Positions 14,315 through 40,683 of a stretch of 61,550 bases of DNA are shown piece after piece. The notes under the pieces are model-generated. The model was not told the DNA's origin and did not search any database. It was given only the letters and a program-made list of their open reading frames with translations. Source of the DNA: Deltaproteobacteria bacterium (GTDB lineage Bacteria; UBA10199; SPLOWO2-01-44-7); assembly GCA_023265595.1 (NCBI GenBank), contig JAHFSU010000008.1, forward strand, positions 1 to 61,550. Direction: 5' to 3'. The position numbers were made by a program, and so were the translations under genes. The first letter of the stretch is position 1, and the number at the start of each line of letters is the position of its first letter.

Positions 14315-14330
14315 TGGCATAAAAGTTGCA
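14315..14330 (+). promoter_or_regulatory. Sigma54 -24/-12 promoter of sctV
   Basis: TGGCATAAAAGTTGCA (GG-N10-GC). Confidence 0.75.
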
Positions 14331-14356
14331 CAAGTATCGATATTTAGAGGAGATTT

Positions 14357-16519
14357 ATGCCGCCACCGGGATCACAGGGCGGGGGAGAACCCCTGCCATT
14401 TTCAGGACTTAACACGATTATCGCCAAATATTCCGACCTGATGCTGGCGGGTTTAGTCATCACCGTCATGGGGATGATTGTCATCCCTCTCCCCAAACAG
14501 CTCCTCGACATTTTGCTCACGATCAACCTCACCATGGGGATCGTGATTTTGCTCGTTTCTCTCTACATTAGTGAGGCGCTTCGCATCGCCTCTTTCCCCA
14601 CTATTTTACTTATAGCAACACTTTACCGTTTGGCATTGAACATATCGACGACCCGTCTCATTTTGTCGCAAGCGGATGCGGGCAAGGTGATCGAAGCCTT
14701 CGGTCACTTTGTGGTGCGGGGCGATCCGATCGTCGGCGGCATTATTTTCATCATTTTGACATTGATCAATTTCATCGTGATCACCAAAGGTGCGGAGCGC
14801 GTTTCGGAAGTTGCCGCCCGTTTCACCTTGGATGCGATGCCCGGAAAACAGATGTCGATCGATGCCGATCTGCGCGCCGGCATCATCAATATCGAACAGG
14901 CTTTAGAACGCCGCTCGCAATTACAGCGCGAATCGCAACTTTATGGAGCGATGGACGGCGCCATGAAATTCGTGAAGGGAGATGCGATCGCCGGCATTAT
15001 CATTATCATCATCAATATTGTCGCCGGCCTCATCATCGGTGTCACACGCCGCGGGATGGATCTCCCCGATGCCGCCAATCTTTACACGTTGCTGACGATC
15101 GGCGACGGTTTGGTGCAGCAGATTCCGGCCCTCATTATCTCTGTTTCTGCCGGTGTGGTGGTTACCCGTGTGACTTCAGAAATTGAGGGTTCCAACCTCG
15201 GCCGTGAAATCATCACACAGATTACCGCCTATCCGAAGGCGATCATCATTGCCGCTTCTATTTTGCTTTCACTGGCGCTGGTTCCGGCCCTCCCCAAAAT
15301 TCCGTTTATTGTCGTGGCGGCTATTCTGGGTACGGTCGCCTTTTTTCTCGTTCGTTCCAAACAGAAAGTGGTGAAAGAGGTGATGGAGACGCCGAAGGAA
15401 GAGGTGGTCAAAAAGGCGGTCAAAAAACATGGCGATGTGTTGCCCTTTATCATGCCGTCACCGATTTCTCTCGAAGTCGGCTCCGGCATCATTCCGTTTG
15501 TCGATGACAAACAAGATGGAGGCCGCTTCATCAACGAATTGATTCCGCTCTTGCGCCATGGTCTCTACTACGAACTCGGTGTCAATTTTCCGGGAATTCA
15601 AGTTCGCGGGCAAACGGTCGACATGGAACCGGAAGGTTATGTGATCAACATTAATGAAGTTCCGGTGGCGCAGGGGAAAATCATGCAGGGGTGCATTTTG
15701 GTGGGAGAGCCGCTCGAACAACTTTCACTTTTTAATATTACGGGAACGGAGACGATTCATCCGATCGATGGCTCGGTCGTCACTTGGATTGCGCAACAGC
15801 ATAAAGATGTGGCGGTGCAGGCCGGTTTCAGAATGTGGGATATTGCGGAATATCTGATTTTGCATCTCTCCCATGCGCTGCGCAAACATGCCCATGAATT
15901 TTTGGGGGTGCAAGAGGTGCAGACGATGCTGACCGAATTGGAAAAAACACATCCGGCTTTGGTGAAAGAGCTGGTGCCGAAGGTGATTACCCTTTTGCAA
16001 CTGACCGAAATTTTTCAACGATTGGTGCAGGAAGATGTGGCGATCCGCGATCTCAAAACAATTTTTTCAACCTTGGCGCAATGGGGCGAAATTGAGCGCG
16101 ATCCGTTGATGCTGACTGAGCATGTGCGTGCGGGCTTGAAGCGCTATGTGACCCACAAATATGCCGGCCCTTCCAATACGCTGGCGGTCTATCTTTTGGA
16201 TCCGGAATTGGAAGATATGGTGAAAAATTCGATTCGTCGAACCGAAAAGGGAAATTATTTGGCGCTCGATCCCGAAATTACGCAGGAGCTGATTGAAGCG
16301 GTCGGAAAAGAAATCGCCTCGCATCCATTCCCTCCGGGGGCGAGACCACCGGTGATTTTGACTATCGCCGAAATCCGCCGTTATTTTCGCAAAATTATCG
16401 AACTCGAATTTCCCCAGCTCTCCGTCTTGTCCTACCAAGAGCTGGCCGAAAACCTCCGTATCCAGCCAATCGCCCGCGTCTCCCTCCCTCAAGAAATCCT
16501 CCAAAAAGCGGTTGCGTAA
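14357..16519 (+). CDS. sctV: T3SS export gate protein SctV (LcrD/FlhA family)
   Basis: RVSEVAARFTLDAMPGKQMSIDADL, GAMDGAMKFVKGDAIAG, LTIGDGLV, VLSYQEL. Confidence 0.93.
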   Translation: MPPPGSQGGGEPLPFSGLNTIIAKYSDLMLAGLVITVMGMIVIPLPKQLLDILLTINLTMGIVILLVSLYISEALRIASFPTILLIATLYRLALNISTTRLILSQADAGKVIEAFGHFVVRGDPIVGGIIFIILTLINFIVITKGAERVSEVAARFTLDAMPGKQMSIDADLRAGIINIEQALERRSQLQRESQLYGAMDGAMKFVKGDAIAGIIIIIINIVAGLIIGVTRRGMDLPDAANLYTLLTIGDGLVQQIPALIISVSAGVVVTRVTSEIEGSNLGREIITQITAYPKAIIIAASILLSLALVPALPKIPFIVVAAILGTVAFFLVRSKQKVVKEVMETPKEEVVKKAVKKHGDVLPFIMPSPISLEVGSGIIPFVDDKQDGGRFINELIPLLRHGLYYELGVNFPGIQVRGQTVDMEPEGYVININEVPVAQGKIMQGCILVGEPLEQLSLFNITGTETIHPIDGSVVTWIAQQHKDVAVQAGFRMWDIAEYLILHLSHALRKHAHEFLGVQEVQTMLTELEKTHPALVKELVPKVITLLQLTEIFQRLVQEDVAIRDLKTIFSTLAQWGEIERDPLMLTEHVRAGLKRYVTHKYAGPSNTLAVYLLDPELEDMVKNSIRRTEKGNYLALDPEITQELIEAVGKEIASHPFPPGARPPVILTIAEIRRYFRKIIELEFPQLSVLSYQELAENLRIQPIARVSLPQEILQKAVA

Positions 16520-16569
16520 GGATTGGCGGGGTGATAGGGGTTCCTCCGCTCAATCTCAAGGAGGTATTT

Positions 16570-17415
16570 ATGCCAGTCGTCAATACTATTTTAGCAACCA
16601 CACTGTTTCAGTCACAGGCGGCATTTGACGCCTTGTTGCACACAGGCCAAGCGGACATTCTGGCCGCAAATGCAGAGGAAATTGATAATTTTCATACAGC
16701 GCTGGGGGGATTGGCTTTCAATTTGCCGGGACCTGCACAAGAAGGCGCAGAAGATATTGGGGCAAAGTTGCTGGATGCGGCACGGACCTTAAATGAGATG
16801 ATAAAATTAGACCGCGGTTGTTATGGAGGGGCTGCCCGTGTGGTACAGTTGAAATATATTGCCGATGATTTGCGACTCATTCCTGCTGGGCATTTTGAAG
16901 AAGCGGTAAAAAAAGTTTTGGCCAGTGGCCACGCCGTGTTTGCCGATCTAACTGATGAAATGACATACATGGAGAATATGGCCATTGATTCCTATGCACC
17001 CTACGCAAAAGCCGCTTGTTTGAAATTAATTGACAAAATTGCTGAAGACCCAACAAATTTGGCTTTCATCGAAGAAGTCAAAGAAATTGTACGGAGAGTC
17101 ATGCGTAGGAGCTATTCATCGCCATACGATCTTGTAGACTTTCCCCATGATGATCATCCGATGTTTAATTTAGATTGTTTAGGAAGGGTTTTAGAAATTT
17201 ATGAGAAATTGGCGGCTTCAGCGGAAGCGGACCATTACAAAGAAGCCCTCAATTATTTGCAGTTTCTGTGCGCCATTTTTATAACAAATCATGGGAATGC
17301 CAAAGATTTGCCTGAAGCATGGATAAAAAAACTTGGAGAAATTTGTCCGGTGGACGATTTTCCAAGTGTTGGGTTGGCAGAACCTCCTACTCCAGCAGCA
17401 GGTTCACCAGCGTAA
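16570..17415 (+). CDS. Hypothetical helical protein downstream of sctV; candidate T3SS substrate
   Basis: AAGGAGG RBS before ATG 16570. N-terminal LATTLFQSQAAF resembles the N-terminus of 13684-14223. Confidence 0.65.
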   Translation: MPVVNTILATTLFQSQAAFDALLHTGQADILAANAEEIDNFHTALGGLAFNLPGPAQEGAEDIGAKLLDAARTLNEMIKLDRGCYGGAARVVQLKYIADDLRLIPAGHFEEAVKKVLASGHAVFADLTDEMTYMENMAIDSYAPYAKAACLKLIDKIAEDPTNLAFIEEVKEIVRRVMRRSYSSPYDLVDFPHDDHPMFNLDCLGRVLEIYEKLAASAEADHYKEALNYLQFLCAIFITNHGNAKDLPEAWIKKLGEICPVDDFPSVGLAEPPTPAAGSPA

Positions 17416-18391
17416 TCAAAGCAAACGCAAACACCGCAATTCCTAGACCGATCATGCCGATCTCCAAAGAGGTCATCCGTTTGGCATACAAAACCGGAGC
17501 CGGATAGACATTCGCCGCCGCCGGTTGCAAAGAGGGGAGACCCTTTAAAATTTCTTCGGCCTCTTCTTTTTCTTCCTGTTCCCCCTCTTCTTTTATTGCC
17601 TCTTCGACCGCCGGTTTCGGTTTGGGATGGGTCTTGCGTGTGATCAACGGTCTTTTTTTGATCAATTCTTCGCTCAACTCCTTTAAGTTGACCTCCTGCG
17701 GATTTCTGAAAAGCAAAACGATTGTTCCCAAAGCGATCCGGTCGCCATCGTGCAAAAATTCTTCAACCACCCTTTTGTTATTTACAAAACAGCCGTTTTT
17801 ACTCTCCATATCGATCAACGCAATCCCTCCCCATTTTTTTATAATTTTGGCATGTTGGCGGGAGATCACATATTCGTTGATCGGAAAATCACAAGAGGGG
17901 TCGCGCCCGAGGATCATCTCGGGCGCGTCGTCGGTCAAAAAAATTCTTTTCCCCTCCGCCGAACCGTTCAAAATTTCGAGAGAGGGGACCGTCTCCTGAT
18001 CGACTGCATCCAAAACTTTTTTTAAAAGTTTCACTTCTAAAATATCGGCGTCGGTCACCTCTTCCTCTTTTTTAAAACTCTCTTCAAATAATGCATCGGT
18101 CAGCCAGAATTTGAGATGGTATTTGTCGATCGTGATCCGATCATTGTTTTTGAGAATATTTTTTTCGTGCGGCTTTAAGATCATTCCGTTTAACAACGTC
18201 CCGTTGCTGCTCCCCAAATCGATCAGATAATATTGTCCCTCTTCTTCGATGATTTTGGCATGCTCCCTCGAGACGGCGTTCCCCGCCAGAAAGACATCAG
18301 TCTGTTCTATCCTGCCGATGAGCGTCTGGACACTTAATTGAAACGCCTTTTCCTCTTTGTGACCGGCTTCCGTCAAAATCAGTTTCGGCAT
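17387..18391 (-). CDS. Tandem FHA-domain protein with a C-terminal membrane anchor
   Basis: Two FHA signatures (IGR..VSREHA..DLGSSNGT and LGR..ISRQHA..DMESKNG) and a terminal TM helix. Confidence 0.85.
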   Translation of the reverse strand: MPKLILTEAGHKEEKAFQLSVQTLIGRIEQTDVFLAGNAVSREHAKIIEEEGQYYLIDLGSSNGTLLNGMILKPHEKNILKNNDRITIDKYHLKFWLTDALFEESFKKEEEVTDADILEVKLLKKVLDAVDQETVPSLEILNGSAEGKRIFLTDDAPEMILGRDPSCDFPINEYVISRQHAKIIKKWGGIALIDMESKNGCFVNNKRVVEEFLHDGDRIALGTIVLLFRNPQEVNLKELSEELIKKRPLITRKTHPKPKPAVEEAIKEEGEQEEKEEAEEILKGLPSLQPAAANVYPAPVLYAKRMTSLEIGMIGLGIAVFAFALITLVNLLLE

Positions 18392-19554
18392 GAAATGTTT
18401 TTTTCCTCGATGAATTTCTTGCTGAGCGCCTCTTCGGCCGGATAGTTTCCGGCCGCTACGCTCGAAAACCGACAATAATAGCCGCCGGCCTCTTTGAATT
18501 TTCCGAGTTTGGCTTCCACTAAGGCCAGATTATACAAAGCCTGTGGGTGTTTGGGGGCGATCGTGACGACATATTCCCATTCTTCTTTGGCCTGATCGGT
18601 TTTGCCCAGCTTATAATAGACGACACCTAAATTATAAATCGCATCGGCATCATTGGGATTGATCGCCTTCGCCTGTTTTAAATAATCGATCGCTTTCGGG
18701 AAATCTCCCTGCTCCATTTTAAGAGTCCCCAATTTGAAAAAGGCGAATTCATTTTTTGAATTGAGTTGCACGACCTGTTCAAACTCCGCCATCGCCTCAT
18801 CGAAACGTTTTTGGTTGAGATAAAATGTGCCGAGTTGCAGATGGGCCTCTTCGGCATTCGGGTTCAGTTCGATCGCCTTTTGAAAACAATTTTGGGCTTT
18901 GAACAGGTCTCCCATTTCGAGATAGAGTTTTCCGAGCGTCTCCCAGACTTGTGGATTGTTGGAGACGTTGAGCGCCAGCCGGTAGCGGACTACGGCGAGA
19001 TCGTATTTCCCCTCTTCGCGATACATCTCGGCAAGTCTCAAATGAACCGGTTCGAGATTCGGGTTTAAAACGGTGGCCCGTTTGAATTCTTTTTCGGCAT
19101 CGGTTTTCTTTTTTAAATCCCAATAGACAAGACCCAAATTGTAGTGGGCATCGGCCAGGAGGGGATCGATCTTAACCGCCTTTTTTCCGGCCTTCAATGC
19201 CTCTTCCGATTTTCCTATCGCCAGATAAACCGCGGCCATGTGGCTCCAGGGGGCCGCATATTTTTTGTCAATTTCAGAGGCCTGATTGAAAAAGGAGAGG
19301 GCCTTTTCATATTCCCCTTTGATTTTGTAGATAACACCTAAGTTACTGACCGGCTCGGCATATTGCGGCGCCAATTCGGTTGCGGTCTGAAATTCAAAAA
19401 TAGCCCTTTCCAAATCGCCGCGGTTCAATGCCGAAATCCCCTGATTGTTGTGAAAAACGGCCTGTTCGGAAGGAAGGGTCTTTTTCTTTTTCGCCAAAAC
19501 GGGGGAACAGATTAGACAAACTGCCAGTAAAAGTATTAATTTCCTTTTAAACAT
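18379..19554 (-). CDS. Exported multi-TPR protein
   Basis: Signal peptide followed by many TPR repeats (e.g. AHYNLGLVY, AIYNLGVVY). Confidence 0.85.
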   Translation of the reverse strand: MFKRKLILLLAVCLICSPVLAKKKKTLPSEQAVFHNNQGISALNRGDLERAIFEFQTATELAPQYAEPVSNLGVIYKIKGEYEKALSFFNQASEIDKKYAAPWSHMAAVYLAIGKSEEALKAGKKAVKIDPLLADAHYNLGLVYWDLKKKTDAEKEFKRATVLNPNLEPVHLRLAEMYREEGKYDLAVVRYRLALNVSNNPQVWETLGKLYLEMGDLFKAQNCFQKAIELNPNAEEAHLQLGTFYLNQKRFDEAMAEFEQVVQLNSKNEFAFFKLGTLKMEQGDFPKAIDYLKQAKAINPNDADAIYNLGVVYYKLGKTDQAKEEWEYVVTIAPKHPQALYNLALVEAKLGKFKEAGGYYCRFSSVAAGNYPAEEALSKKFIEEKNISCRN

Positions 19555-20552
19555 GGATTGATCGTCTCCGCTTTATTTTGAAATTCTCCGGCCGACCGAG
19601 ATTGGCCCATTTTAGCATAGGCTTGGCCCAGATAATAGGCGTTCATCGCATCTTCCGGCACTTTTTGGAGTGCTTCTCTGAATTCTTTCACGGCCCTTCC
19701 GGCATCGCCGGTCGCCAAAGCCCGAATACCGTCGATGGTATCGGCATAGGCCCCTAAATAGGGGCTCTCCATCGGGTACGCGGAGGCCCTCGATTGTTTT
19801 TTCATCGCCTGTAATGCGGCCTCGATATTTTCCAAATCTTGATTGTACGGTTCCCCCTTCTGTTTGTGATCGAGACCGATGAATCCGTAAGTCTCCATGA
19901 ATCCGAAATAGGCTTGGGGGTAGTGGGGGTCTTCGCGCCTTGCTTCCTGAAACCAGACAAGGGCCACCTCAATTTTGGCCGGTGCAAAACTCCGGAGCGC
20001 CGTGTATCCTTTTGTGGCGTTTTCAAATGCCGCCACTTGGTCGGTTTCATTTTGGATCAGCAGCATTTTTTTCGTATCGATTTTTTTGCGTCCGAGCTTT
20101 TTCAAAATCCCCTCGGCCGCTTTACGCAGATCGACAAAAAAATCTTTGTGTCCTGGAAAAGGGGTCTCCACCACAAATTGCGCGAGCAACTTTCCCTTCC
20201 CGTCTTGCAGTTGGATAAAAGCCCGGAGCCACCCGCTGATATTTTGGTAGAGCCCTTCAATGCGATATTGCACCGGATGTTCGGGTGGTAAAAAGATTGT
20301 ATCCTGTTTTGGGAGAATACCGAGTTGGGAATCGGTTTTGAGATAACGGGTGAGGATGTCGGCCATCCCGTCCGAGAGCCAGTCATCTGATTTGCGTCCG
20401 GTATCATTCACGAAGGGACCGATGCTGATGATCTCTTTTTTTCGAATCGCCTCATCGACCCGTTCTTGGGCGAAAACCTTTGGCCAATGAACGCATTGTT
20501 CTGCCGCATGGGCCGGCAGGGAGATCAAAAAAACAAAGGCCAAAATTTTCAT
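19536..20552 (-). CDS. Exported protein with a TolB-N/CsgG-like alpha/beta domain and C-terminal TPR
   Basis: Signal peptide (AHA|A), ISIGPFVNDTGRKSDDWLSDGMADIL motif, TPR-like AYYLGQAY. Confidence 0.6.
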   Translation of the reverse strand: MKILAFVFLISLPAHAAEQCVHWPKVFAQERVDEAIRKKEIISIGPFVNDTGRKSDDWLSDGMADILTRYLKTDSQLGILPKQDTIFLPPEHPVQYRIEGLYQNISGWLRAFIQLQDGKGKLLAQFVVETPFPGHKDFFVDLRKAAEGILKKLGRKKIDTKKMLLIQNETDQVAAFENATKGYTALRSFAPAKIEVALVWFQEARREDPHYPQAYFGFMETYGFIGLDHKQKGEPYNQDLENIEAALQAMKKQSRASAYPMESPYLGAYADTIDGIRALATGDAGRAVKEFREALQKVPEDAMNAYYLGQAYAKMGQSRSAGEFQNKAETINPCLKGN

Positions 20553-20636
20553 CGTTTCCCAGTATGCTTTTGGTTTGGATTCGATGCAAGTTTAACTTTT
20601 ACCCCATTTGCATTCTATGTTAATAAATCCGATAAA

Positions 20637-22783: not shown

Positions 22784-22852
22784 AGGTAAGTTGTACCGCA
22801 GTGATTACATTATTTGCGTATTGGTCAAAAATCTGGTACCTTTCAAACAGTT

Positions 22853-23121: not shown

Positions 23122-23150
23122 GCAACTTTAGGTATCCACCCTGCCGATAA
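23122..23150 (+). promoter_or_regulatory. Sigma28-like promoter GCAACTT-N14-GCCGATAA
   Basis: GCAACTT 23122-23128, perfect GCCGATAA 23143-23150, GGAGG RBS, ATG 23173. Confidence 0.65.
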
Positions 23151-25286: not shown

Positions 25287-25307
25287 TATAAGTAGGAGGC
25301 AATCGAT

Positions 25308-32242: not shown

Positions 32243-32751
32243 TGGCAAAATATCGTCTCGAAGCGTTGTTAAAAATGCGGACGCACGAAAAGAAGCGGGC
32301 TGAAATAGCTTTGGCAAAAGCGATTGCGGCCCTTCAGGAGGCAAAGAAGAAACTCGAAACCTTGAAAGAGGAAAAAAAAGAGATTGTGAAGGAGCAAAAA
32401 GAGGCCAAAAAGAAGATGGATCATAAAATGAGCGGCGGTGGATTAATCGGAGAAGGGTGTTTTCACGTCAATTTTTTACGCAAACTCAAAGAGGATGAGG
32501 TGCAGAAGGAAGAAAAGATTGAAGAACAAAAAGGGGTTGTCGAAGAGGCGACCGAAAAGGTGGCCAAATGCCGCAGAAATTATATCGATTCGGTCAAGCA
32601 GCTCCGGATCATGGAAAAACATAAGGAGCTTTGGGAGAAAAAGTTGCGTCAGGAATTGAACCGCCTTGAGGAAAAAGAGATGGATGAATTGGGTCAGACG
32701 ATCCATTCCTTAAAAAAATGGCGGGGGGAGAAATCGGTTTTTGAATTATGA
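32242..32751 (+). CDS. sctO: T3SS stalk SctO (FliJ-like coiled coil)
   Basis: KYRLEALLKMR start, coiled coil, EEKEMDE end; directly after the ATPase. Confidence 0.75.
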   Translation: MAKYRLEALLKMRTHEKKRAEIALAKAIAALQEAKKKLETLKEEKKEIVKEQKEAKKKMDHKMSGGGLIGEGCFHVNFLRKLKEDEVQKEEKIEEQKGVVEEATEKVAKCRRNYIDSVKQLRIMEKHKELWEKKLRQELNRLEEKEMDELGQTIHSLKKWRGEKSVFEL

Positions 32752-33530
32752 TCGAAGACGTTAAATATAACGATCGCAAATATATCGACCGGGCCGAACA
32801 GGCGAAAGAGGCCGACAAGCCGAAGCCTCCGAAAAAAGAGGGGAAGAGTCCGTTCGATGAATTGCTCGAGCAGAGCCAGCGCTTGCAACAGGGTTCTGTC
32901 GATACCAAATCGCAAGACAAACGTGTTTTGCAACAGGCGGCCAAAGAGGTCGAAAAGCGGCAGGAACGGCAGCGGGATCAGTCCAAAGATAGGGAAAGAG
33001 AAGACGAACATCGTCAGAATACAAGAGACGAACGGAGTCCGACACAAAGCGTGACCAAAAAAGTGGTCGGCAAGGCCGGTTTGAAAGAACAACAGGGGGG
33101 TGGCGGGGAGCATGCCTCGGAAGGGGGTGGCGGATTTTCACGCAAAAAAGAATCATCTTCCGCGGCGGCAAAAAAATCGGAAATGGCGCCGGCGCCGTTG
33201 CAAAAGGAGACAGGGGCCTTTGGCAAAGCGTTCAAAATAGCGATGTCGCAATATCTGCCCAAAACGCTTTCGCAGGAAATTTTGAACAAGGTCGTGCAAT
33301 ATGTCCGGATCGGTTTAAGCCGCAAAGGCAATAAAGAGATCGAACTGGAACTTCATGAAAAAATCTTTAAAGGGTTGCGTTTGCGCTTGGAGTCTAACCG
33401 TGGTAAAGTGACCCTGCATTTTTTGGCGGCCAATGCGCAGACACGGGCCCTTTTTGAAAGGGAGTCGTCAAAAATCCGGGCCCATCTTGAAAACAGGGGG
33501 ATCGACGTTGCAAAAGTGATGGTGACTTGA
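32748..33530 (+). CDS. Putative needle-length ruler SctP (FliK-like C-terminal domain)
   Basis: Disordered charged N-terminus, compact C-terminal domain (LRLRLESNRGKVTLHF..LENRGI), position after sctO. Confidence 0.6.
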   Translation: MIEDVKYNDRKYIDRAEQAKEADKPKPPKKEGKSPFDELLEQSQRLQQGSVDTKSQDKRVLQQAAKEVEKRQERQRDQSKDREREDEHRQNTRDERSPTQSVTKKVVGKAGLKEQQGGGGEHASEGGGGFSRKKESSSAAAKKSEMAPAPLQKETGAFGKAFKIAMSQYLPKTLSQEILNKVVQYVRIGLSRKGNKEIELELHEKIFKGLRLRLESNRGKVTLHFLAANAQTRALFERESSKIRAHLENRGIDVAKVMVT

Positions 33531-34444
33531 AACAATCTATGCCGCAAATCAAACCGTTCCAATTTCATTTGGCGAAAATTTCCGGAGCGGAGGTCCGTCT
33601 CGTGGAAGGACTTTTGGATTTTCTGCCGGCCACCGGTTTGAGAGAGACTCTCAACCTGGCCATCCGAAAAGCGCTCAACAAATATCTGCCGGATATTCGC
33701 TATTATGTGGAACGGGTTGAACCGCTTCACTTCCACGATTTTTTTGCATTGCTTCCCAACATTTGCACCGTCGGGGTTTTAGGGTTGAACCCATTTCAGG
33801 AAAAGGGTTTTGTCGAGATCGACCCTGTTTTAAACCAACGGGTCATTGCCAAATTGCTGGGCGGCAAATCGGAGGAGATGACGGAGCTCAAAATGTTGAC
33901 TGAAACCGAACAAGGCGTCGTCGAATTTTTAATTTTGAAGATATTGTCGCAAATTCATAAATTGAGCGGGGAAGAAGAGAGGCTCCATTTCCGGCTCGAG
34001 CAGATGATTTTGGAGCCGAATCATTTAAAACAATTCATTCGAAAAGATTATCCTCTGGTCTGCATCAAAATCCATGTTGCTTTTTTAAAGCAGTCGGGTT
34101 TTGTCAAAATTATCCTTCCTCATCCGTGGGTGGTTGAGGGCTTTTTGCAGGATCTGCCAAAAGAAAAATCGCATCTGTTGCAAGAACTCAAAAAAAATTT
34201 GAGCCATTTTGATTATATTCCGCTTGAGCTGTTCGGTTCGCTGGGAGATGTCCGAATCCATTTTGATGATTTGAAAAATCTTGAAGAAGGAGATGTTGTC
34301 TTGTTTGATGCGACGGAATTGGTTAGAAAGGATGCGGCATTTCGGGGTGAAGTCAAACTGGTGGCCGGTCAAGGTGAATCGGGCGCCTTGACGGCCCTTT
34401 GGGAAGGTTTTGCGGAGAAAGGTCGATGTCGTATAACGAAGTAG
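33527..34444 (+). CDS. SctQ/FliM-like C-ring protein
   Basis: LTETEQGVVE FliM-like segment and SpoA-like LKNLEEGDVVLF. Confidence 0.65.
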   Translation: MKQSMPQIKPFQFHLAKISGAEVRLVEGLLDFLPATGLRETLNLAIRKALNKYLPDIRYYVERVEPLHFHDFFALLPNICTVGVLGLNPFQEKGFVEIDPVLNQRVIAKLLGGKSEEMTELKMLTETEQGVVEFLILKILSQIHKLSGEEERLHFRLEQMILEPNHLKQFIRKDYPLVCIKIHVAFLKQSGFVKIILPHPWVVEGFLQDLPKEKSHLLQELKKNLSHFDYIPLELFGSLGDVRIHFDDLKNLEEGDVVLFDATELVRKDAAFRGEVKLVAGQGESGALTALWEGFAEKGRCRITK

Positions 34445-34483
34445 TGTATGGTACCTGTTAACATATGCTCGTCGGAGGCAAAA

Positions 34484-34834
34484 ATGGCTAAGAAAAAGGG
34501 TCAGGATGAAGATGTGACTGAGGTCGGCCTTGATTTGAGCGATCTTGAAGAAAAACAGGAACAAAAAGAGGAAAAGAGCGATTTTTCCGGTGATTTTTCC
34601 GATGAAGTGGTTTCCATGTCGGAAGATGTCCCCGTGCACCTTGTGGCTGTTTTGGGAAAAAAGAAGATATCGCTTAAAGATCTTTTGAAGCTGAAAGTGG
34701 GGCATACCCTCGATTTGGAAAGGGCCCCGAACGAATTTGTCGATCTCGTTGCAAACGGCAAGGTGATTGCCCGCGGGGAGCTCGTTGAAATCGACGGGAA
34801 ACTCGGCGTTCGGGTTATTAAGATGCTGAAATAG
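34484..34834 (+). CDS. FliN/SctQ-C SpoA-domain protein
   Basis: DVPVHLVAVLG..LLKLKVG..VDLVANGKVIARGELVEIDGKLGVRV; GGAGG RBS. Confidence 0.85.
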   Translation: MAKKKGQDEDVTEVGLDLSDLEEKQEQKEEKSDFSGDFSDEVVSMSEDVPVHLVAVLGKKKISLKDLLKLKVGHTLDLERAPNEFVDLVANGKVIARGELVEIDGKLGVRVIKMLK

Positions 34835-34920: not shown

Positions 34921-35220
34921 ATGGATTTTACAATACTCTTTCTTCAGATGCTTTTTGCGTTGTTAGTCGTTTGCGCCGGGGCCGTCGTTGTTCTTAAATA
35001 TCTTTTGCCCCGGATGAGCGGGCTTAAAAAATGGCAAAAGGGGGACACTTTTGAATTGGTCAGTCGTTTCAATTTGGATTATAAAAGGACAATCTATTTA
35101 GTCAGGGTCGGAAAAAAGTATCTCGTCTTGGGGGGAGCCGAAGGGGGGCTCCAATTGTTGGCGGAATTGCCGGAGGGCGACGTCACAACAAGGGAGCATC
35201 ATGGATCGAAAATTGCGTAG
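34921..35220 (+). CDS. FliO-like membrane protein
   Basis: One TM segment, then LVSRFNLDYKRTIYLVRVGKKYLVLGGAEGGLQLL; lies between the FliN-like gene and sctR. Confidence 0.75.
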   Translation: MDFTILFLQMLFALLVVCAGAVVVLKYLLPRMSGLKKWQKGDTFELVSRFNLDYKRTIYLVRVGKKYLVLGGAEGGLQLLAELPEGDVTTREHHGSKIA

Positions 35221-35971
35221 CCGTTTTGTCTTTCTCTTTTCATTAATCGGTTCCATTTTATTTTCAGGTCCGCTGTTTGCGCAGGCGGCGAAGACCATCG
35301 GAGTCTCCCGCCCGCTCGTTTTGCTTTTGGCCTTGGCGGCCCTTTCTTTAGTCCCGTTTGTTTTAATGATGGCCACCTCTTTTGTGAAACTGGCCGTTGT
35401 TTTATCCCTAATTCGGAATGCGTTGGGAACCCAGCAGGTGCCGCCCAATATTGTGGTGACCGGATTGGCCCTCATTTTGACGGTCTACATTATGGCGCCG
35501 GTCGGGATTAAAGTTTATGATATTGCGAAAGAGACGATCAATCAGGGGACCAACCAGCCGTTGTTGTCTCAGGCTTCCGTCGAAATGTTGACGAAAGCGG
35601 TCAAAGAAGGAAAAGAACCGGTTCGCGATTTTTTGCTCCGACACGCCCATGAAAAGGAAAAAAAACTTTTTTATAATTTGGCCGTCGAGATGCGCAAAAA
35701 AGACAACGTAACCCAAGACATCAGCGAGAAAGATTTTTTGAACATCATCCCCGCGTTTGTGATCAGCGAATTGACGGAGGCCTTTCAAATCGGCTTCATC
35801 ATTTTTCTCCCCTTTCTGGTGATCGATATTGTCATTGCCAACATTTTGCTTTCCTTGGGTATGTTTCAAATTTCTCCCGTGACCTTGTCGCTGCCATTTA
35901 AACTTTTGCTTTTTGTGATGGTCGATGGCTGGCACCTGATTGTCAAAGGTCTGGTGCAGGGCTATTTATAA
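35201..35971 (+). CDS. sctR: T3SS export apparatus SctR (FliP family)
   Basis: TSFVKLAVVLSLIRNALGTQQVPPN, PAFVISELTEAFQIGF, SLPFKLLLFVMVDGW. Confidence 0.93.
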   Translation: MDRKLRSRFVFLFSLIGSILFSGPLFAQAAKTIGVSRPLVLLLALAALSLVPFVLMMATSFVKLAVVLSLIRNALGTQQVPPNIVVTGLALILTVYIMAPVGIKVYDIAKETINQGTNQPLLSQASVEMLTKAVKEGKEPVRDFLLRHAHEKEKKLFYNLAVEMRKKDNVTQDISEKDFLNIIPAFVISELTEAFQIGFIIFLPFLVIDIVIANILLSLGMFQISPVTLSLPFKLLLFVMVDGWHLIVKGLVQGYL

Positions 35972-35974
35972 CTT

Positions 35975-36238
35975 ATGGACTATTTTTTAGGCATCGCCAA
36001 ACAGGCCCTCTTTTTATCGCTGATCATTACCGCGCCGCCGGTTTTGGTCGCGATGATTGTGGGGCTCGTCATCAGCATCTTGCAGGCCACCACGCAGATT
36101 CAGGAGCAGACGCTCACGTTCGTTCCCAAACTGGTTGCCGTTGTGATAGCCATGGTCCTCACCGCCGAATTGCTCACAGGCCAGCTTCTCTCATATACGC
36201 ATTGGTTGTTTGATAATTTTGCGCAATACGTAAAATAA
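35975..36238 (+). CDS. sctS: T3SS export apparatus SctS (FliQ family)
   Basis: GLVISILQATTQIQEQTLTFVPKL. Confidence 0.93.
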   Translation: MDYFLGIAKQALFLSLIITAPPVLVAMIVGLVISILQATTQIQEQTLTFVPKLVAVVIAMVLTAELLTGQLLSYTHWLFDNFAQYVK

Positions 36239-37132
36239 ATGGAAACGGTTCTCCACGATTTAAATATCAACATCAATTTTCCTTTTGTGCTGACGATGGC
36301 GGCATTGATTTGGGCGCGCGTGTTGAGCGTGATTGTTGTGATTCCGTTTTTGTTCGGCAAACCGGTTCCGAGAACGGTGCGCGTCGGGGCCTCGGTCCTT
36401 TTGACGGTTTTTTTGTACCCGCTTTTGGTCGAAAAACAAATGGCGTCGCAGACAATCGATTTTCTGCGTCTCTTCGCCCTCTTTTTCAAAGAGATTTTGT
36501 TCGGCCTCTCCATCGGCTTTGCCGCCTCGATGCTCTTTTACGGCTTTGAAGCGGCCGGCCGGATGATCGATAACCAGCGCGGCGTCTCTCTCGCGAGGGT
36601 TTTGATTCCCGAATTGGGGGAGCAGTCTTCCATTTCGGGGCAGTTTCTTTTTCAATTTGCCGTCGTGATTTTTCTCGTTCTCGGCGGCCACCGGTTTTTT
36701 CTGAAGGCCTTGGCCGAAAGTTATCAGGCAGTGCCTCTTTTAAGTTTTCCGGAGAGTGTCTCCGGCCTCTTTCCGGTTGTCGACCTTTTTGGCGTTTTGA
36801 CCGGAAAGGTTTTATTTCTCTCGGTGCAGATTGCGGCGCCGGTCATTATCGCCGTGTTGATTGCCGATATTATTTTGGGAGTGACCAACCGTTTTGCGCC
36901 GCAGATTAATGTCTGGGAGTTGGGCTTTAACATCCGCGGCTATGTCGGCATTTTGCTTCTCTTTTTGTCGATGGGACTGATTGCCCGCCAGATTGAGTTT
37001 TACACCGAAAAATCAGGAAAAGAGGTTGTCCAAGTGATTGAGCGTTTCAAAGCCAAGCCGCCCCCCCTCCCAAAACCGTTGGAAGAGATCACCCCCGAAG
37101 AGCTCCAAAAACCGGCCCCGGTTGTCCCGTGA
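36239..37132 (+). CDS. sctT: T3SS export apparatus SctT (FliR family)
   Basis: AAGRMIDNQRG, GGHRFFL, NRFAPQINV; multiple TM segments. Confidence 0.9.
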   Translation: METVLHDLNININFPFVLTMAALIWARVLSVIVVIPFLFGKPVPRTVRVGASVLLTVFLYPLLVEKQMASQTIDFLRLFALFFKEILFGLSIGFAASMLFYGFEAAGRMIDNQRGVSLARVLIPELGEQSSISGQFLFQFAVVIFLVLGGHRFFLKALAESYQAVPLLSFPESVSGLFPVVDLFGVLTGKVLFLSVQIAAPVIIAVLIADIILGVTNRFAPQINVWELGFNIRGYVGILLLFLSMGLIARQIEFYTEKSGKEVVQVIERFKAKPPPLPKPLEEITPEELQKPAPVVP

Positions 37133-37251: not shown

Positions 37252-37267
37252 TGGCATCACGGTTGCA
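37252..37267 (+). promoter_or_regulatory. Sigma54 promoter of the translocator/chaperone operon
   Basis: TGGCATCACGGTTGCA (GG-N10-GC); AGGAGG RBS before 37317. Confidence 0.75.
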
Positions 37268-37316
37268 TTACTCCTGATGCGAGACCCCATTTAGGGTCTT
37301 TTAAATAGGAGGCTTT

Positions 37317-38510
37317 ATGATTAGTGGTGGAGAACTTAGAATTAATCCGAGAGAAATGAAGGATACCAATAATGATGGAAAAATTAATGATGCAGAAATG
37401 AGTAAAGGTGTTATCGATGAAGCAACAACCCAACCAGTAGCCAATCAGACAGTAGATCTTGGCTCTGTTAAATTTGATGGTCAAACGTACGATTGGCAAA
37501 ATATTAAAGAGGCTCTAAAAAATGCTGCAGATCATCATCCAATAACAGCGGGATCTAATCTTAGTTTCGACGAAGTGAAAACAGAGCTTAAGAAAATTTT
37601 GTTAGGTAAATTAGATCAAGAAATTAGCAAAGTGCGTCAGGCGCAAGCTGAATTAGATGCAGAAAAAGCCAAGACTCCAAAGAATAATAACACTATTAAA
37701 ACAAAACAAGACGCTTTAACAGAAGCCAAAAATAGTTTGGAAAGAACTCTCAATCAAGCCCGCGCGGCCGGTGTAAATACGCAGCGACAAGTTACCGAAG
37801 CCTCCAATTTGTTAGGAAGGGCTGCACCCGAAGGGGGAGCCGGTTCCGGTTCCGCCAATTTCAAAGCGCAGACAGCCAATCCACAGGTGGCGATGCCTCC
37901 GGCTCCTCAAGCCGGTGCGCCGACGGGTGGACAAGGTGCGGCCGGTGCTCCACAAGCGGCTGCCCTGACGGCCGGGCCCAATTATTCCGGTTATGGGCCG
38001 AACGGTCTCAGCGGTATGTCCAACCCAACCTCCGCCGCTTATGCCAACGCTTTGGCTTTTGATGCCAGCGCCGGTTTTGGCGATGCGATTACGCAATCAG
38101 GAAATGCCCGCCGCGAAGGCCAAAAGCTGATGATGCTGTTTTACTTTTTTGCCCGCATGGCCGAATCGGGTGATTTGGGAGCCATGTATCAATTCATCAA
38201 GTTCATCACTTATATTATTGCCAAAGACAAGGCGCGCCAAAATATCCAACTCGGTTCCAAATTGATCCAGTTGCAGGATGTCTCCAGAAAGGCGACTGAT
38301 GCTTTGTTGAAGAGCGATCCGAACGATTCCACCGCCTTCTTGAAGGCGCAGCAACAGACCAAAGGGATCACCGATGCGGTTTCCACATCCCAAAAATTGA
38401 TTGCCGATACGTTGCAAGAATTTGCGCACGTGGTCGAATCGCTTGTGAACTCAAGCAAGAACTTGCTGGATGCTTGGGGCAGAGTCTTGAGAACGGCTAG
38501 CTCGAGATAA
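37317..38510 (+). CDS. Putative T3SS translocator/tip-like protein with an N-terminal EF-hand loop
   Basis: DTNNDGKINDAE loop, coiled coil, Ala/Pro/Gly linker, hydrophobic LMMLFYFFARM..YQFIKFITYII; adjacent to a SycD-like chaperone. Confidence 0.6.
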   Translation: MISGGELRINPREMKDTNNDGKINDAEMSKGVIDEATTQPVANQTVDLGSVKFDGQTYDWQNIKEALKNAADHHPITAGSNLSFDEVKTELKKILLGKLDQEISKVRQAQAELDAEKAKTPKNNNTIKTKQDALTEAKNSLERTLNQARAAGVNTQRQVTEASNLLGRAAPEGGAGSGSANFKAQTANPQVAMPPAPQAGAPTGGQGAAGAPQAAALTAGPNYSGYGPNGLSGMSNPTSAAYANALAFDASAGFGDAITQSGNARREGQKLMMLFYFFARMAESGDLGAMYQFIKFITYIIAKDKARQNIQLGSKLIQLQDVSRKATDALLKSDPNDSTAFLKAQQQTKGITDAVSTSQKLIADTLQEFAHVVESLVNSSKNLLDAWGRVLRTASSR

Positions 38511-38519
38511 TAATAGCGC

Positions 38520-38556
38520 TTCCCCTCCTTTGCAAAAAAGGAGGGGAATGCCTTTT
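38520..38556 (+). terminator. 12-bp stem-loop after the first translocator-like gene
   Basis: ttcccctccttt-gcaaa-aaaggaggggaa. Confidence 0.55.
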
Positions 38557-38578
38557 ATCTTGGCTAAAGGGCGAAAAA

Positions 38579-39190
38579 ATGATAGATTTCAACATAATGG
38601 CTAAGAAAGAGACACCGAAGGGCCCCGCGAAGATTCCTTCCAAAACGCCCGAACAAGAGGCTAAAGAGGCCGATCTCTTTTTTGAAGAGCTGGAGAACCG
38701 CCTCAAAAATGTTCCGCAGGAAGAGATTCAGGCCGGCGCCAAAAAAATCAGCGATTTTTTGGAAGGAAAAATCGGTTGGGGGGAGGTTTTTAATTTCACT
38801 CCGGAGCAGATCGAACAGATGGCCGAAATGGGCTACACCCATTTCAAAGTGGGTCGTTATCAAGATGCCGAACGATTTTTCAAGGTTCTCACCATTTTGG
38901 ATTGGGACAATTTTTATTATCACTCGATGCTCGGTTCCATCTTGCAGCGCCAAAAAAGAGAAGGGGAGGCGATTGTGGAATATACGCAGGCATTGGAATC
39001 GAATCCCAACGATATCGTCAGTCTGACCAACCGGGGGGAGATTTTCATGAAAAACGGCTGGCTCGCGAATGCGGCGCAGGATTTTGATAAGGCCATCGCG
39101 CTCGATTCCAAAAAAGAAAACAAATGGGCCAATCGTGCGCGCGTGCTCAAAGAACAGTTGGAGAAAAACAGAGCCGCCGCCAAAAAGTAG
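38579..39190 (+). CDS. SycD/LcrH-like class II TPR chaperone
   Basis: GYTHFKVGRYQDAERFFKVLTILD..LGSILQ..EAIVEY. Confidence 0.8.
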   Translation: MIDFNIMAKKETPKGPAKIPSKTPEQEAKEADLFFEELENRLKNVPQEEIQAGAKKISDFLEGKIGWGEVFNFTPEQIEQMAEMGYTHFKVGRYQDAERFFKVLTILDWDNFYYHSMLGSILQRQKREGEAIVEYTQALESNPNDIVSLTNRGEIFMKNGWLANAAQDFDKAIALDSKKENKWANRARVLKEQLEKNRAAAKK

Positions 39191-39197
39191 GTAATCT

Positions 39198-40127
39198 ATG
39201 GCCGTTGAAAATATTCGCCCCCACATCGAGAGAGACTCCCAAATTCGGCCGACGCTCGAACAGCCGGAACTGATCGATGCCCTTCGCCACGGCAATATCT
39301 ACGAAATTTTAAGGACTCCCGGCATCAATCGCCGCGACCTTGAAGAATATCTGGCCAACCAATCGCGGATTTTTCAAAATCAAATCGTTCAGGATTATCA
39401 AATTTATTCTGAAGAGGGGATGATCCCGACGCCGGAGATCGGCAGCCATTTTGCCGTCCATGCCAAAGAGATGACCCTCTCGGCTCAGGACCATCAATCC
39501 TTCAAGCAGGATATGCAAGCTTTGCAAAATTTTCCGCTCGAAGTTTCGACCGACGGCGCCGCAAAACCGCGCGTGAAATTCAAGGGGATGAAGGCGGATG
39601 TCGCAGGCGGTTCCGGACAGGATGTGGCCGGCATGGCTGAAAAAGATTTGAATCGCTGGAACGATTATTTTTCGGATCTTTCGATGAAGGTAATCGATGC
39701 GCAGGCGATGCAACAGTTGCAATCCAAAACGGCCGAGCTCAACCGCGAAGTGCAGCGGATGGTTTCGCTTGTGATGTCGGGGCAAATTGATCCGGAATAT
39801 GTGCTGATCGCCGCGGCCAAATCGAATATGCTGCAAAACGGCACCTTCTTTTCGTGGAAAGGGCGGCGCATCATGCAACTGAATGAGGAGATGGAGAAGG
39901 TCAATAAGGAATTGATCAAAATGGATCCGTCGGACAGAGGATTTTTATCGGAACAGACAATTGCCGCGCAAAAAACGCGGGCCGGTTCGACGCAGATGCA
40001 GCTCGAAATGATGGACATCCAGAAATTTGCGCAAAATATCGCGACGACGCTCGATTGGGTCAACAACGCCATTCGCCAAATGGCCCAGATGCGTCAGACC
40101 CCGACGCAGGCGATTGCGGCGCGATAA
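39198..40127 (+). CDS. Second putative translocator/tip-like secreted protein
   Basis: Helical; C-terminal half similar to 37317-38510; lies between two chaperones. Confidence 0.55.
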   Translation: MAVENIRPHIERDSQIRPTLEQPELIDALRHGNIYEILRTPGINRRDLEEYLANQSRIFQNQIVQDYQIYSEEGMIPTPEIGSHFAVHAKEMTLSAQDHQSFKQDMQALQNFPLEVSTDGAAKPRVKFKGMKADVAGGSGQDVAGMAEKDLNRWNDYFSDLSMKVIDAQAMQQLQSKTAELNREVQRMVSLVMSGQIDPEYVLIAAAKSNMLQNGTFFSWKGRRIMQLNEEMEKVNKELIKMDPSDRGFLSEQTIAAQKTRAGSTQMQLEMMDIQKFAQNIATTLDWVNNAIRQMAQMRQTPTQAIAAR

Positions 40128-40128
40128 A

Positions 40129-40155
40129 TGGATTCCGGCTTTCGCCGGAATGACG
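40129..40155. repeat. REP-like palindrome
   Basis: tggattccggc-tttc-gccggaatgacg. Confidence 0.6.
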
Positions 40156-40158
40156 AAC

Positions 40159-40683
40159 ATGGAAGAAAAAAAACAGACCGGCACGATCATCGATCCCAAT
40201 CCGGAGCGGCGCAAAAAAGTACTCGAAAAATTCTACGCCTTGCTCGAAGACAAGGTCAGCCTTGCGGAACTGAAGGGGTTCAAACGGGAACATCTCTATC
40301 AACTGGCCGAATCGGGTCATGTCAAGCTCAAGCACGGTCGCCTCGATGAGGCCGAAAAAATATTTCAGGCCCTGACCATGCTCGATCACCGGAACGCCTA
40401 TTTTCATGCGGCGATGGGGGCGGTGCATCAGAAAAAACACAAACCGGTGGAGGCGATTGTGGAATATTCGGTCGCCCTTTCGATCGATTCCAAAGACATT
40501 GTTTCGTTAGTGAATCGCGGTGAAATTTATCTGCGTCACAAAAACTTCCGAAAGGCGGCCGAAGATTTTCGGAGCGCCATTTTGCTCGACATGTCGGGCA
40601 AAAATCTCTGGGCCAACCGCGCCCGTTCCCTCGTCATTGCGATCAAACGTTCGATGGAAAAGACATCTGTCTCTACCAAGTAG
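40159..40683 (+). CDS. Second SycD/LcrH-like TPR chaperone
   Basis: GRLDEAEKIFQALTMLD..EAIVEY..DIVSLVNRGEI..NLWANRAR; clearly paralogous to 38579-39190. Confidence 0.8.
   Translation: MEEKKQTGTIIDPNPERRKKVLEKFYALLEDKVSLAELKGFKREHLYQLAESGHVKLKHGRLDEAEKIFQALTMLDHRNAYFHAAMGAVHQKKHKPVEAIVEYSVALSIDSKDIVSLVNRGEIYLRHKNFRKAAEDFRSAILLDMSGKNLWANRARSLVIAIKRSMEKTSVSTK

Follow-up and report, generated by a model that had tools for sequence, protein, structure and literature searches.

A phylum-wide branch of the Myxo-type type III secretion systems with flagellum-like components and regulators

What kind of machine is encoded by a cluster of type III export genes that resembles a flagellar export apparatus in some parts and an injectisome in others? 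This question is raised by a locus of an uncultured groundwater bacterium, the genes of which span about 14.3-40.7 kb of the window, i.e., of the whole stretch of 61,550 nucleotides that was analyzed (contig C29 of a genome of 1.87 Mb, 70 contigs, 97% complete). A preliminary description of positions 14315-40683 had listed type III secretion system (T3SS) genes together with several flagellar-type traits, and had read them as an early-branching injectisome. Pfam and NCBIfam searches recovered each listed gene at its position, including the separate FliM-like and FliN-like genes, the FliO-like gene, and the FliA-family sigma factor gene with which the core operon begins. They also revealed a FliG-like gene at 29256-30248, which had been overlooked. 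The NCBIfam profile of the locus is mixed, flagellar and injectisome models are both represented. We assign the system to the known 'Myxo'-type T3SSs, among which it represents a new branch that spans the phylum, and it is highly probable that it is non-flagellar and of the Myxo type. Of the earlier interpretation, the non-flagellar nature, the position outside the known families, and the grouping with the secretin-less T3SSs of Myxococcota are retained, but early branching is not established. Genes and motifs between positions 13619 and 40683 lie on the forward strand, unless the reverse strand is mentioned.

Phylogenetic position and conservation of the system

Phylogenetic trees were calculated for the export gate protein SctV (720 amino acids (aa), 14357-16519; FHIPEP E 2e-235) and for the ATPase SctN (30917-32242). 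SctV reaches 782 bits with the NCBIfam hrcV model, above the cut-off of 692, in contrast to 688 bits with the FlhA model, below the cut-off of 772. The SctV tree (IQ-TREE quick search, LG+C20, midpoint-rooted) contains 76 of 117 extracted sequences, after duplicate loci and surplus flagellar sequences had been dropped. A flagellar FlhA clade of 33 sequences, with 100% support in the Shimodaira-Hasegawa-like approximate likelihood ratio test (SH-aLRT) and a stem of 0.84, excludes the window. This clade contains Salmonella FlhA, Firmicutes, Bdellovibrionales, and the second FlhA copies of five flagellated relatives, which have their own fliPQR and fliA genes nearby. The window is part of a clade of 12 sequences (100%) that is sister to two Archangium sequences (86% SH-aLRT), and a group that contains Polyangiaceae joins near this clade. 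On the opposite side of the midpoint, the canonical injectisome side, are Ysc, Rhc, Hrp1, Hrp2, Mxi-Spa, Desulfovibrionaceae, Verrucomicrobiota/Lentisphaerota, and Chlamydiae, the last as a clade of their own. The SctN tree (quick search, 40 of 58 extracted sequences, duplicates and surplus flagellar sequences dropped) has a very similar message: the sequences of the phylum adjoin Archangium and a delta-proteobacterial metagenome-assembled genome (MAG), a 99% branch divides the phylum and Archangium sequences from canonical SctN, including Chlamydiales, and from FliI, and a 96% clade of FliI sequences excludes the window. Therefore, the system is non-flagellar, as had been proposed, and it is placed outside the well-characterized families that were sampled (Ysc, Rhc, Hrp1, Hrp2, Mxi-Spa, Chlamydiae, and Desulfovibrionaceae). 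In neither tree does the window protein nest within FliI/FlhA or within a known family.

The nearest relatives of the system outside the phylum are found in Myxococcota. Among the 80 named loci that were kept from 599, the best SctV matches are from two Archangium MAGs with 53% identity, followed by Chlamydiae and unclassified MAGs with 46-48%, and injectisome SctV and flagellar FlhA proteins of many phyla are about 37-44% identical. SctN of the window and of Archangium share 56% identity. Three blocks of genes are shared with Archangium. The first comprises sctN-O-P-FliM/FliN-R-S-T, two SycD-like genes, sctV, and one gene each for an FHA and a TPR protein, the second is orf162-sctJ-FliG-like, and the third is a module of genes for a small helical protein, an orf182-like protein and a YscG-like TPR protein, followed by a FliA-like sigma factor gene. 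Because the nearest relatives are Archangium loci with a matching gene order, the system is assigned to the secretin-less 'Myxo' T3SSs. According to the available sections of a comparative study, the core of non-flagellar T3SSs consists of SctC, J, N, Q, R, S, T, U, and V, the secretin is missing in the Myxo subgroup, and this group is placed at the base of the non-flagellar T3SSs (Abby and Rocha, 2012, PMC3459982). The phylogenetic position of the present system matches the Myxo group of that study, which groups with Myxococcales next to the flagellar outgroup: Archangium is the sister or the adjoining lineage in both trees. However, the root of the T3SSs is not fixed by the SctV and SctN trees, and the attributes 'early-branching' or 'basal' hinge on its position, which weighs against this part of the interpretation. 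An F1-ATPase-based root of the SctN tree was located inside the phylum's own clade, and with about 9.8 changes per site on the outgroup branches it was deemed unreliable.

In spite of the common operon order and the common lack of a secretin, the new branch differs from the Archangium systems in several respects. It is found in another phylum, the genomes of which are small, SctV is only 53% identical, and the sctJ and sctU genes are displaced. In addition, the FliM-like and FliN-like proteins are encoded by separate genes in the window and also in the relatives G004 and G039, whereas in Archangium (L068:1599-3017) both parts are present in one SctQ-like frame of 473 aa; the arrangement in this phylum is the flagellum-like one. 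Several of the flagellar traits that had been called unusual are indeed present, but have already been recorded for the Myxococcota family, e.g., a FliO gene, which is common to both (available sections of PMC12248157). The FHA and TPR neighbors, the two SycD-like chaperones, the FliG-like gene, the module with the yscE-yscF-yscG order described below (E-F-G module), and the FliA-like sigma factor are likewise shared with the Archangium MAGs.

Conservation was analyzed with 41 related genomes from 20 families and with a phylum set of 93 genomes, each of which is labeled as belonging to the same class or closer. Database homologs are titled 'Deltaproteobacteria bacterium RIFCSP...', and these organisms would fall into the GTDB phylum UBA10199. 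SctV and SctN are present in all 41 relatives, with identities of 70-94% and 71-92%, respectively. SctN was detected in 89 of the 93 genomes of the phylum and in 61 of the 63 high-quality ones; the four genomes without a match are 83-94% complete. The genome sizes in the phylum are 1.1-4.6 Mb. The FliG-like gene is also present in 41/41 relatives, always adjacent to sctN, and the gene order of the locus is maintained in G004, G039, and G006, the three relatives for which the whole locus was fetched.

Seven of the 41 relatives contain an additional, stand-alone FHIPEP paralog, which is 34-43% identical to SctV of the window (L117 in G027, L118 in G040, L121 in G007, L123 in G034, L126 in G013, L127 in G033, and L128 in G020). 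These paralogs form their own clade with 100% support, and no other T3SS gene is found within about 8 kb. At E 1e-60, these genomes have no SctN beyond that of the system described here, and flagellar FliI is present only in G033 and G034.

Components of the machine

The core operon starts with the FliA-like sigma factor gene and continues with orf162 (28753-29241), the FliG-like gene, sctL for the stator (30249-30914), sctN, sctO for the stalk (32242-32751), sctP for a FliK/HpaP-like ruler (32748-33530), the FliM-like gene (33527-34444; PF02154 E 1e-15), the FliN/SctQ-C-like gene (34448-34834; PF01052 E 1e-21), the FliO-like gene (34921-35220; PF04347 E 8e-11), and sctR, sctS, and sctT, which encode the core of the export gate (35201-37132). 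The assignments of sctL, sctO, and sctP are based on Pfam and NCBIfam. The cut-offs of NCBIfam injectisome models are passed by SctV, SctR, and SctT (hrcV/SctV, yscR, and SctT models), while SctN is above the cut-off for both the FliI_clade2 and the SctN model, and SctS for both FliQ and SctS. These sequences show a full inner-membrane export gate of the non-flagellar type, with SctR, S, T, and V encoded here and SctU elsewhere, plus a FliO-like gene. They also show the parts of a cytoplasmic complex, namely the FliG-like adaptor, the FliM-like and FliN-like pod proteins, SctL, SctN, SctO, and the FliK/SctP-like ruler.

A ring of the lipoprotein SctJ is likewise evident from the sequences, as are membrane proteins with FHA domains. 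sctJ (24121-25173; YscJ_FliF E 4e-22) likely starts near 24235, which would yield the lipobox LLLTGC, and the protein has a C-terminal membrane helix. Its best NCBIfam model is SctJ with 115 bits, below the cut-off of 162, and fliF reaches only 22 bits; a short lipoprotein of the SctJ type is thus present instead of FliF. A protein with the arrangement FHA domain, membrane helix (residues 263-281), PEGA, and TPR (20466-22739; matches to FHA, Yop-YscD_cpl, two PEGA stretches, and TPR) is a candidate for the SctD-like outer inner-membrane-ring or adaptor protein. The SctD model TIGR02500 covers only its N-terminal part, with 48 bits versus a cut-off of 86. The alignment with the relatives begins at about residue 58, and the real start is probably near 20637. 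A second protein, encoded on the reverse strand (17387-18475), contains two FHA domains, followed by a membrane helix at the C-terminus (residues 339-357; FHA E 2.5e-37, Yop-YscD_cpl E 4e-25), and its homolog in Archangium adjoins sctV. Between these genes, also on the reverse strand, two TPR proteins of 391 and 338 aa with hydrophobic N-termini are encoded (18379-20552; Pfam and membrane-helix prediction). Both are retained in the relatives G004, G006, G039, and G025, and the former in Archangium as well.

Could the locus be a degenerate flagellar export apparatus that was kept as a general exporter after the loss of motility? Such remnants occur in some endosymbionts, and the order of the genes mirrors the flagellar fliE-FGHIJK and fliLMNOPQR operons, e.g., of Escherichia coli. 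Furthermore, the FliG-, FliM-, FliN-, and FliO-like proteins are all detectable with Pfam, a FliA-like sigma factor is encoded, FliI_clade2 and FliQ are the top models for SctN and SctS, respectively, and some of the relatives are flagellated. However, these flagellated relatives carry the system in addition to a separate flagellar FlhA and FliI, homologous loci are present in non-flagellated Myxococcota, and the SycD-, YscG-, and YscO-type parts and the FHA proteins of the SctD type are components of injectisomes. The preliminary description had noted that FliF, rod, hook, flagellin, and Mot genes are not recognizable in the window, and this could be extended to the whole genome: Flg_bb_rod, Flg_bbr_C, and Flagellin_N have zero matches, MotB_plug has none above the cut-off (MotA was not searched), and sctJ is the sole gene of the YscJ/FliF family. 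As sctV is also the single FHIPEP gene and axial proteins are not matched, the system is the only type III export apparatus of the genome, and it is not a flagellum. The flagellar remnant is largely refuted by the position of SctV outside the fully supported FlhA clade, and we consider it very improbable.

The FliG-like protein of 330 aa is encoded between orf162 and sctL, i.e., at the position of SctK. It matches FliG_C with 36.3 bits (cut-off 23.3; E 7e-9) and FliG_M with 24.4 bits, slightly under the cut-off of 25, while the equivalog model TIGR00207 yields 24.8 bits versus a cut-off of 226.7, in a genome that lacks FliF, and MotB over the cut-off. FliG_M and/or FliG_C are precomputed domains in all but eight of 67 database homologs, and one database homolog is titled 'FliG C-terminal domain-containing protein'. 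When a family profile of 28 sequences was compared with the PDB sequences, only FliG chains were found at E ≤ 0.001 (best 2.8e-6), and no SctK. The AlphaFold2 model has a predicted local distance difference test score (pLDDT) of 86.7, and its top Foldseek matches are full-length FliG proteins of Salmonella C-rings (E 1.4e-4). A Foldseek-independent comparison (VIA) also retrieved the FliG middle domain (Z 10.2, root-mean-square deviation (rmsd) 1.7 Å over 75 residues) and FliG of Salmonella and Aquifex (Z 9.5 and 8.8). The Pseudomonas aeruginosa SctK protein PscK (6uie_B) followed with Z 8.6 and an rmsd of 3.8 Å over 159 of 179 residues, which may reflect no more than a common helical arrangement. 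An hhalign comparison of the family with five canonical SctK proteins revealed no profile similarity (probability 0.05%). The gene order is orf162, FliG-like, and sctL in the window and orf162, sctJ, and FliG-like in Archangium, where the FliG-like gene is located upstream of sctN. Because the gene sits at the K position of an I-J-K-L block, we read the protein as an SctK equivalent, which is still FliG-like by sequence and has a fold that resembles FliG and possibly also PscK. It has a conserved E88/P90/R91 patch.

In the available sections of PMC3459982 it is stated that FliG and SctF are lacking in Myxo systems. A FliG-like protein and a candidate SctF-like protein are present here, with homologs in Archangium, and therefore the published description of the Myxo group may be incomplete, rather than the system being outside of it. 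FliG is not mentioned in the accessible part of the preprint on the PscK structure (0 occurrences), and FliG is among the fold matches of a chlamydial SctK candidate in only one preprint found, in its accessible part. The newness of the FliG-like and needle-like genes is limited in that published gene tables of Myxococcus may already list some of them.

The genes between the large FHA protein and SctJ are arranged in the order of yscE-yscF-yscG on plasmid pYV of Yersinia enterocolitica (locus L111). orf100 (22814-23116) encodes a small helical protein at the position of the needle co-chaperone YscE; it is retained in G004, G039, G006, and Archangium. orf182 (23173-23721) is followed by the gene for a TPR chaperone of 150 aa (23811-24263), which resembles YscG/CdsG/SctY (CdsG E 6e-11, LcrH_SycD E 9e-11, SctY E 2e-8, each below the NCBIfam cut-off). 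The 218 homologs of orf182 are all unnamed. orf182 has a conserved N-terminal segment and a low-complexity middle rich in Gly, Ser, and Pro, and its C-terminal helix hardly varies within the family. In an hhalign comparison with YscF, MxiH, and a rhizobial SctF, the C-termini are in register and match up to their ends (E 5e-4). In the predicted complex of the three chains, residues 165-179 of orf182 are located in the groove of the TPR protein, which is also contacted by orf100. The median score is 0.63, compared to 0.03 for the best control, a mark that was attained by 58 of 80 solved complexes and by 2 of 110 mismatched pairs; the partners have a pLDDT of at least 57, and the contacts agree between runs to at least 50%. 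The same E-F-G module is encoded in an Archangium MAG, with an orf182 profile match of E 1e-11 and a TPR gene that is 43% identical, and the orf182 profile matches two further MAGs, one of them from Polyangiaceae. Taken together, profile alignment, gene order, and modeling indicate that orf182 is probably an exported axial subunit of the needle (SctF) type. If this is true, the terms 'needleless' and 'SctF lost' need to be revisited for the Myxo family.

Several results weigh against this assignment. The hhalign probability is merely 30%, none of 26 members of the orf182 family matches the needle family T3SS_needle_F (PF09392) with E values up to 10, and a search of the PDB sequences gave no match. 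The AlphaFold2 monomer has a pLDDT of only 53.5, and the family was detected in just 26 of the 41 relatives at E 1e-8. Moreover, the complex score may reflect a memory of solved complexes of the YscEFG type. Genome-wide, the sole match of PF09392 is the C-terminus of orf397 with a non-significant E value of 0.33, and control genomes show similar noise. For the inner rod, orf162 is the likely SctI protein, judged from its position directly upstream of sctJ in Archangium and a profile match to the C-termini of five SctI proteins; the weakness of the latter (hhalign E 1.3e-3, probability 19%) speaks against it.

Regulators, putative substrates and neighboring genes

The preliminary description had proposed two tiers of regulators, and both are indeed present, together with motifs in front of the expected operons. 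An NtrC-type response regulator and sigma-54 activator is encoded on the reverse strand (26126-27496; Response_reg, Sigma54_activat E 1e-65, HTH_8), and rpoN is present in the genome. Sigma-54-type motifs (TGGCAT-N5-TTGC) are located 40-65 bases upstream of sctV (14315-14329, 42 bases upstream of the start, one mismatch to the consensus), the sigma factor gene (27815-27829, two mismatches), and orf397 (37252-37266). The motif in front of the sigma factor gene recurs in two of three relatives, and that of sctV was found at -40 to -55 in the genomes of 6 of 15 relatives, comprising 5/5 of the same family. Against this tier speak the occurrence of the sctV motif in only one of the ten genomes from other families and the total number of sigma-54 motifs in the window, which is at the level expected by chance (59 versus 57.5).

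The second regulator is the FliA/WhiG-like sigma factor (27868-28743; FliA_WhiG 122 bits, below the cut-off of 190). It is the only FliA-like sigma factor of the genome, and the Archangium homolog is encoded beside the E-F-G module. In flagellated relatives, fliA is present as a separate gene that adjoins flhA. A sigma-28-like motif, GCAACTT-N-G(C/A)CGATAA, occurs five times in the window versus 0.14 expected; its -10 part equals the sigma-28 consensus. The sites are at 7541-7567, 13619-13646 (upstream of orf179, with the sequence GCAACTT-N-GACGATAA), 23122-23150 (upstream of the needle-like gene orf182, GCAACTTT-N-GCCGATAA), 25258-25286 (upstream of orf142), and 46059-46085 (upstream of orf1239). 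It precedes the orf182 homologs in 4/4 loci that were inspected (G004, G006, G039, and Archangium), and the site at orf142 is retained in G004 and G006. Genome-wide, the motif in the form GCAACTT-N-GCCGATAA occurs 101 times, compared to 3-8 times in five shuffled genomes, which suggests that the sigma factor of the T3SS locus might govern a large, wider regulon. The strict sigma-28 pattern TAAA-N14-16-CCGATA has one match, equal to the chance expectation.

These motifs suggest a cascade in the style of flagella, with sigma-54 for the machine and the FliA-like sigma factor for late substrates. The NtrC-type activator and sigma-54 would switch on sctV, the operon of the sigma factor and the core genes, and the orf397 operon. 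The FliA-like sigma factor would subsequently activate late genes with GCAACTT-N-GCCGATAA promoters, among them the needle-like gene. A metatranscriptome of the same sample contained almost none of the sequence words that were sampled, a result with no bearing on expression. Two-tier expression of this sort occurs in many flagella, with the same order of sigma-54 and sigma-28-type promoters.

Downstream of the core operon, the region 37252-40683 contains orf397, a gene for a SycD/LcrH-like chaperone (38579-39190), orf309, and a second chaperone gene of this type (40027-40683). The chaperones match LcrH_SycD with E 5e-22 and 2e-21, both below the NCBIfam cut-off. This region is likely a module of secreted substrates with class-II chaperones, and orf397 and orf309, neither of which has a strong membrane helix, are the probable substrates, as deduced from their position beside the SycD-class chaperones. 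On the reverse strand, the large proteins orf551 and orf1239 are encoded behind the sigma-28-like promoter 46059-46085 (40673-46085). Both might be substrates that are secreted late, or else surface proteins, homologs are present in the relative G004, and no Pfam family was found for either; orf1239 has Atlas scores of at most 0.85 to Ig-like ASH/HYDIN repeats, which is a lead only.

The remaining genes of the locus are orf179 behind its promoter (13619-14223), the acidic orf294 (16531-17415), which varies across the lineage, and orf142 and orf125 behind a sigma-28-like promoter (25258-26117). No function could be assigned to orf179 and orf294, and tblastn searches of the relatives' loci that were fetched gave no match to either of them. 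Pfam and NCBIfam contain nothing significant for orf179, orf294, orf100, orf182, orf142, orf125, orf162, orf397, orf309, and orf551.

The genes that immediately precede secA and the T3SS locus (8959-10810) encode a protein phosphatase of the PP2C type and a peptidoglycan peptidase of the M23 family. Both of them, in combination with the presence of several FHA-domain proteins, hint at a control by Ser/Thr phosphorylation, by analogy to some type VI systems. Six large open reading frames of 417-970 aa that flank the locus (344-3483, 5916-8945, and 46163-51582) have no Pfam family at E 1e-5 and are candidates for lineage-specific secreted proteins.

Dispersed genes, proposed function and evolutionary position

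Neither sctU nor a secretin gene had been recognized in the window, and both were found only in other parts of the genome. sctU is isolated on contig C35 (C35:41613-42632; locus L006:9578-10654, minus strand), near an FHA-domain gene and housekeeping genes. It is the only FlhB/SctU gene of the genome (Pfam E 9e-111), and it reaches 350.7 bits with the NCBIfam SctU model, slightly below the cut-off of 358. Three secretins are encoded in the genome, each inside its own cluster. The first adjoins RcpC/CpaB and a fused ParA-like/T2SSE ATPase in a Tad-like cluster, the second is preceded by the gene of an MshE-type ATPase and by genes of pilin size (type IV pilus/mannose-sensitive hemagglutinin pilus), and the third is of the GspD type (type II secretion system (T2SS)). 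In the Tad-like cluster (contig C3:69903-74033, locus L131), the ATPase of 642 aa is a fusion of a ParA/MinD-like N-terminal domain with a T2SSE domain, and the secretin, which was found in 14 of 41 relatives, carries a BON domain.

Further observations on the machine as a whole weigh against the explanation favored here. SctJ, SctQ-C, SctU, and the chaperones are under their NCBIfam cut-offs. The lone SctU has NPTE at the site of the autocleavage motif, which is NPTH in FlhB/SctU proteins. None of the three secretins is near T3SS genes, and a dedicated SctC is lacking in the window. Because the locus is devoid of a secretin and the three others are part of foreign clusters, delivery to the outside of the cell is unproven.

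The lack of a secretin could also mean that the machine is a needleless exporter of the inner membrane, which releases its substrates to the periplasm or hands them over to a pilus machine of the Tad/Kil type, which would provide the passage through the outer membrane during predation. The 'needleless' T3SS* of Myxococcus xanthus acts together with the Tad-like Kil pilus in prey lysis (available sections of PMC12075869). The closest relatives of the present system are loci of Myxococcota, and the genome contains the Tad-like cluster with RcpC/CpaB, a secretin, and the fused ATPase. However, the Tad-like secretin is present in 14/41 relatives, in contrast to 41/41 for the T3SS, and therefore a partnership between the T3SS and Tad is not general; the Tad-like system as an obligatory partner was rejected. 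In addition, the yscE-F-G-like module with its candidate axial subunit is present here and in Archangium, and it would be difficult to account for the ruler-like gene and the two translocator-class chaperones if no axial parts were exported. A needleless exporter is thus an unlikely, though not negligible, explanation.

Dispersed genes are also typical for the T3SS of Chlamydiae, which leads to the alternative of a conventional host-cell injectisome that is aimed at a eukaryotic host and has its outer parts encoded elsewhere. Both systems share the dispersal of core genes (here sctU), the universal retention in a lineage with small genomes, and a CdsG-like needle chaperone. Chlamydiae use sigma-28 and sigma-54 regulators, the counterparts of which are present here, and SctN is 61% identical to a SctN of Chlamydiales. 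However, SctV groups with Myxococcota and not with Chlamydiae, a translocon with membrane helices is not recognizable, and Chlamydiae have a T3SS secretin, whereas here no secretin is found beside the T3SS genes and each one has partners of a pilus or the T2SS. The comparison with the Ysc type of Y. enterocolitica pYV is similar: The I-J-K-L and N-O-P-Q-R-S-T orders are shared and SycD/LcrH-class chaperones adjoin likely secreted proteins, but secretin, pilotin, gatekeeper, LcrV-type tip, and YopB/D-type translocators are not recognizable, the SctK position is occupied by a FliG-like protein, and two genes, one FliM-like and one FliN-like, are present in place of a single SctQ gene. We regard a conventional injectisome as quite improbable.

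For the Myxo-type machine, we favor a scheme in which the SctI-like rod protein orf162 would be exported, as would the SctF-like subunit orf182, which beforehand would be held by the YscG-like TPR chaperone and its YscE-like partner. Afterwards, orf397 and orf309 would be exported as substrates that are bound by the SycD-type chaperones. This fuller mechanism, including the needle-type subunit and the two-tier cascade, is on balance probable, less firmly so than the assignment to the Myxo type. Because nearly every member of this phylum of small genomes retains the system with identities of 70-94%, its role is probably a central one, in an interaction with prey or host cells that depends on contact.

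How injectisomes evolved from flagella, and via which intermediates, is a long-standing question, and the few intermediates were essentially those of Myxococcales. The present analysis adds the presence of SctN in 89 of the phylum's 93 genomes, a FliG-like protein in the place of SctK, a candidate needle subunit in an E-F-G-like module, and promoter motifs that suggest the sigma cascade. In a tentative and rather doubtful further reading, the family would be nearer to the intermediate between flagellum and injectisome than any other surviving form, an axial structure would be present in Myxo-type machines, and the phylum would consist of obligate cell-contact predators or symbionts with an 'attack' regulon of about 100 promoters. 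This reading is based, on the one hand, on flagellar traits, i.e., the FliG that connects ring and pods and from which SctK would have descended, the separate FliM and FliN, FliO, and the sigma cascade. On the other hand, SctJ, SctD partners of the FHA type, SycD-class chaperones, and an SctF-like subunit with YscE/YscG-type chaperones are already present. If it is true, 'needleless' Myxo-type machines, including the T3SS* for Myxococcus predation, would build an axial structure, and a sigma factor encoded by the T3SS would run the 'attack' regulon of the phylum.

With this lineage, a second branch of the intermediate type is available, which is deep and very well conserved, and which is a useful living model of the evolution of one machine, flagellum or injectisome, into the other. 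It adds evidence on the sequence level for a descent of the SctK adaptor from FliG, it provides a family described as needleless with a candidate needle subunit, and it contributes a putative regulatory cascade in the flagellar style that is testable on defined promoters. Last but not least, the near-universal retention of the system in a groundwater phylum with small genomes points to a hitherto unrecognized lifestyle that depends on a host or on prey.

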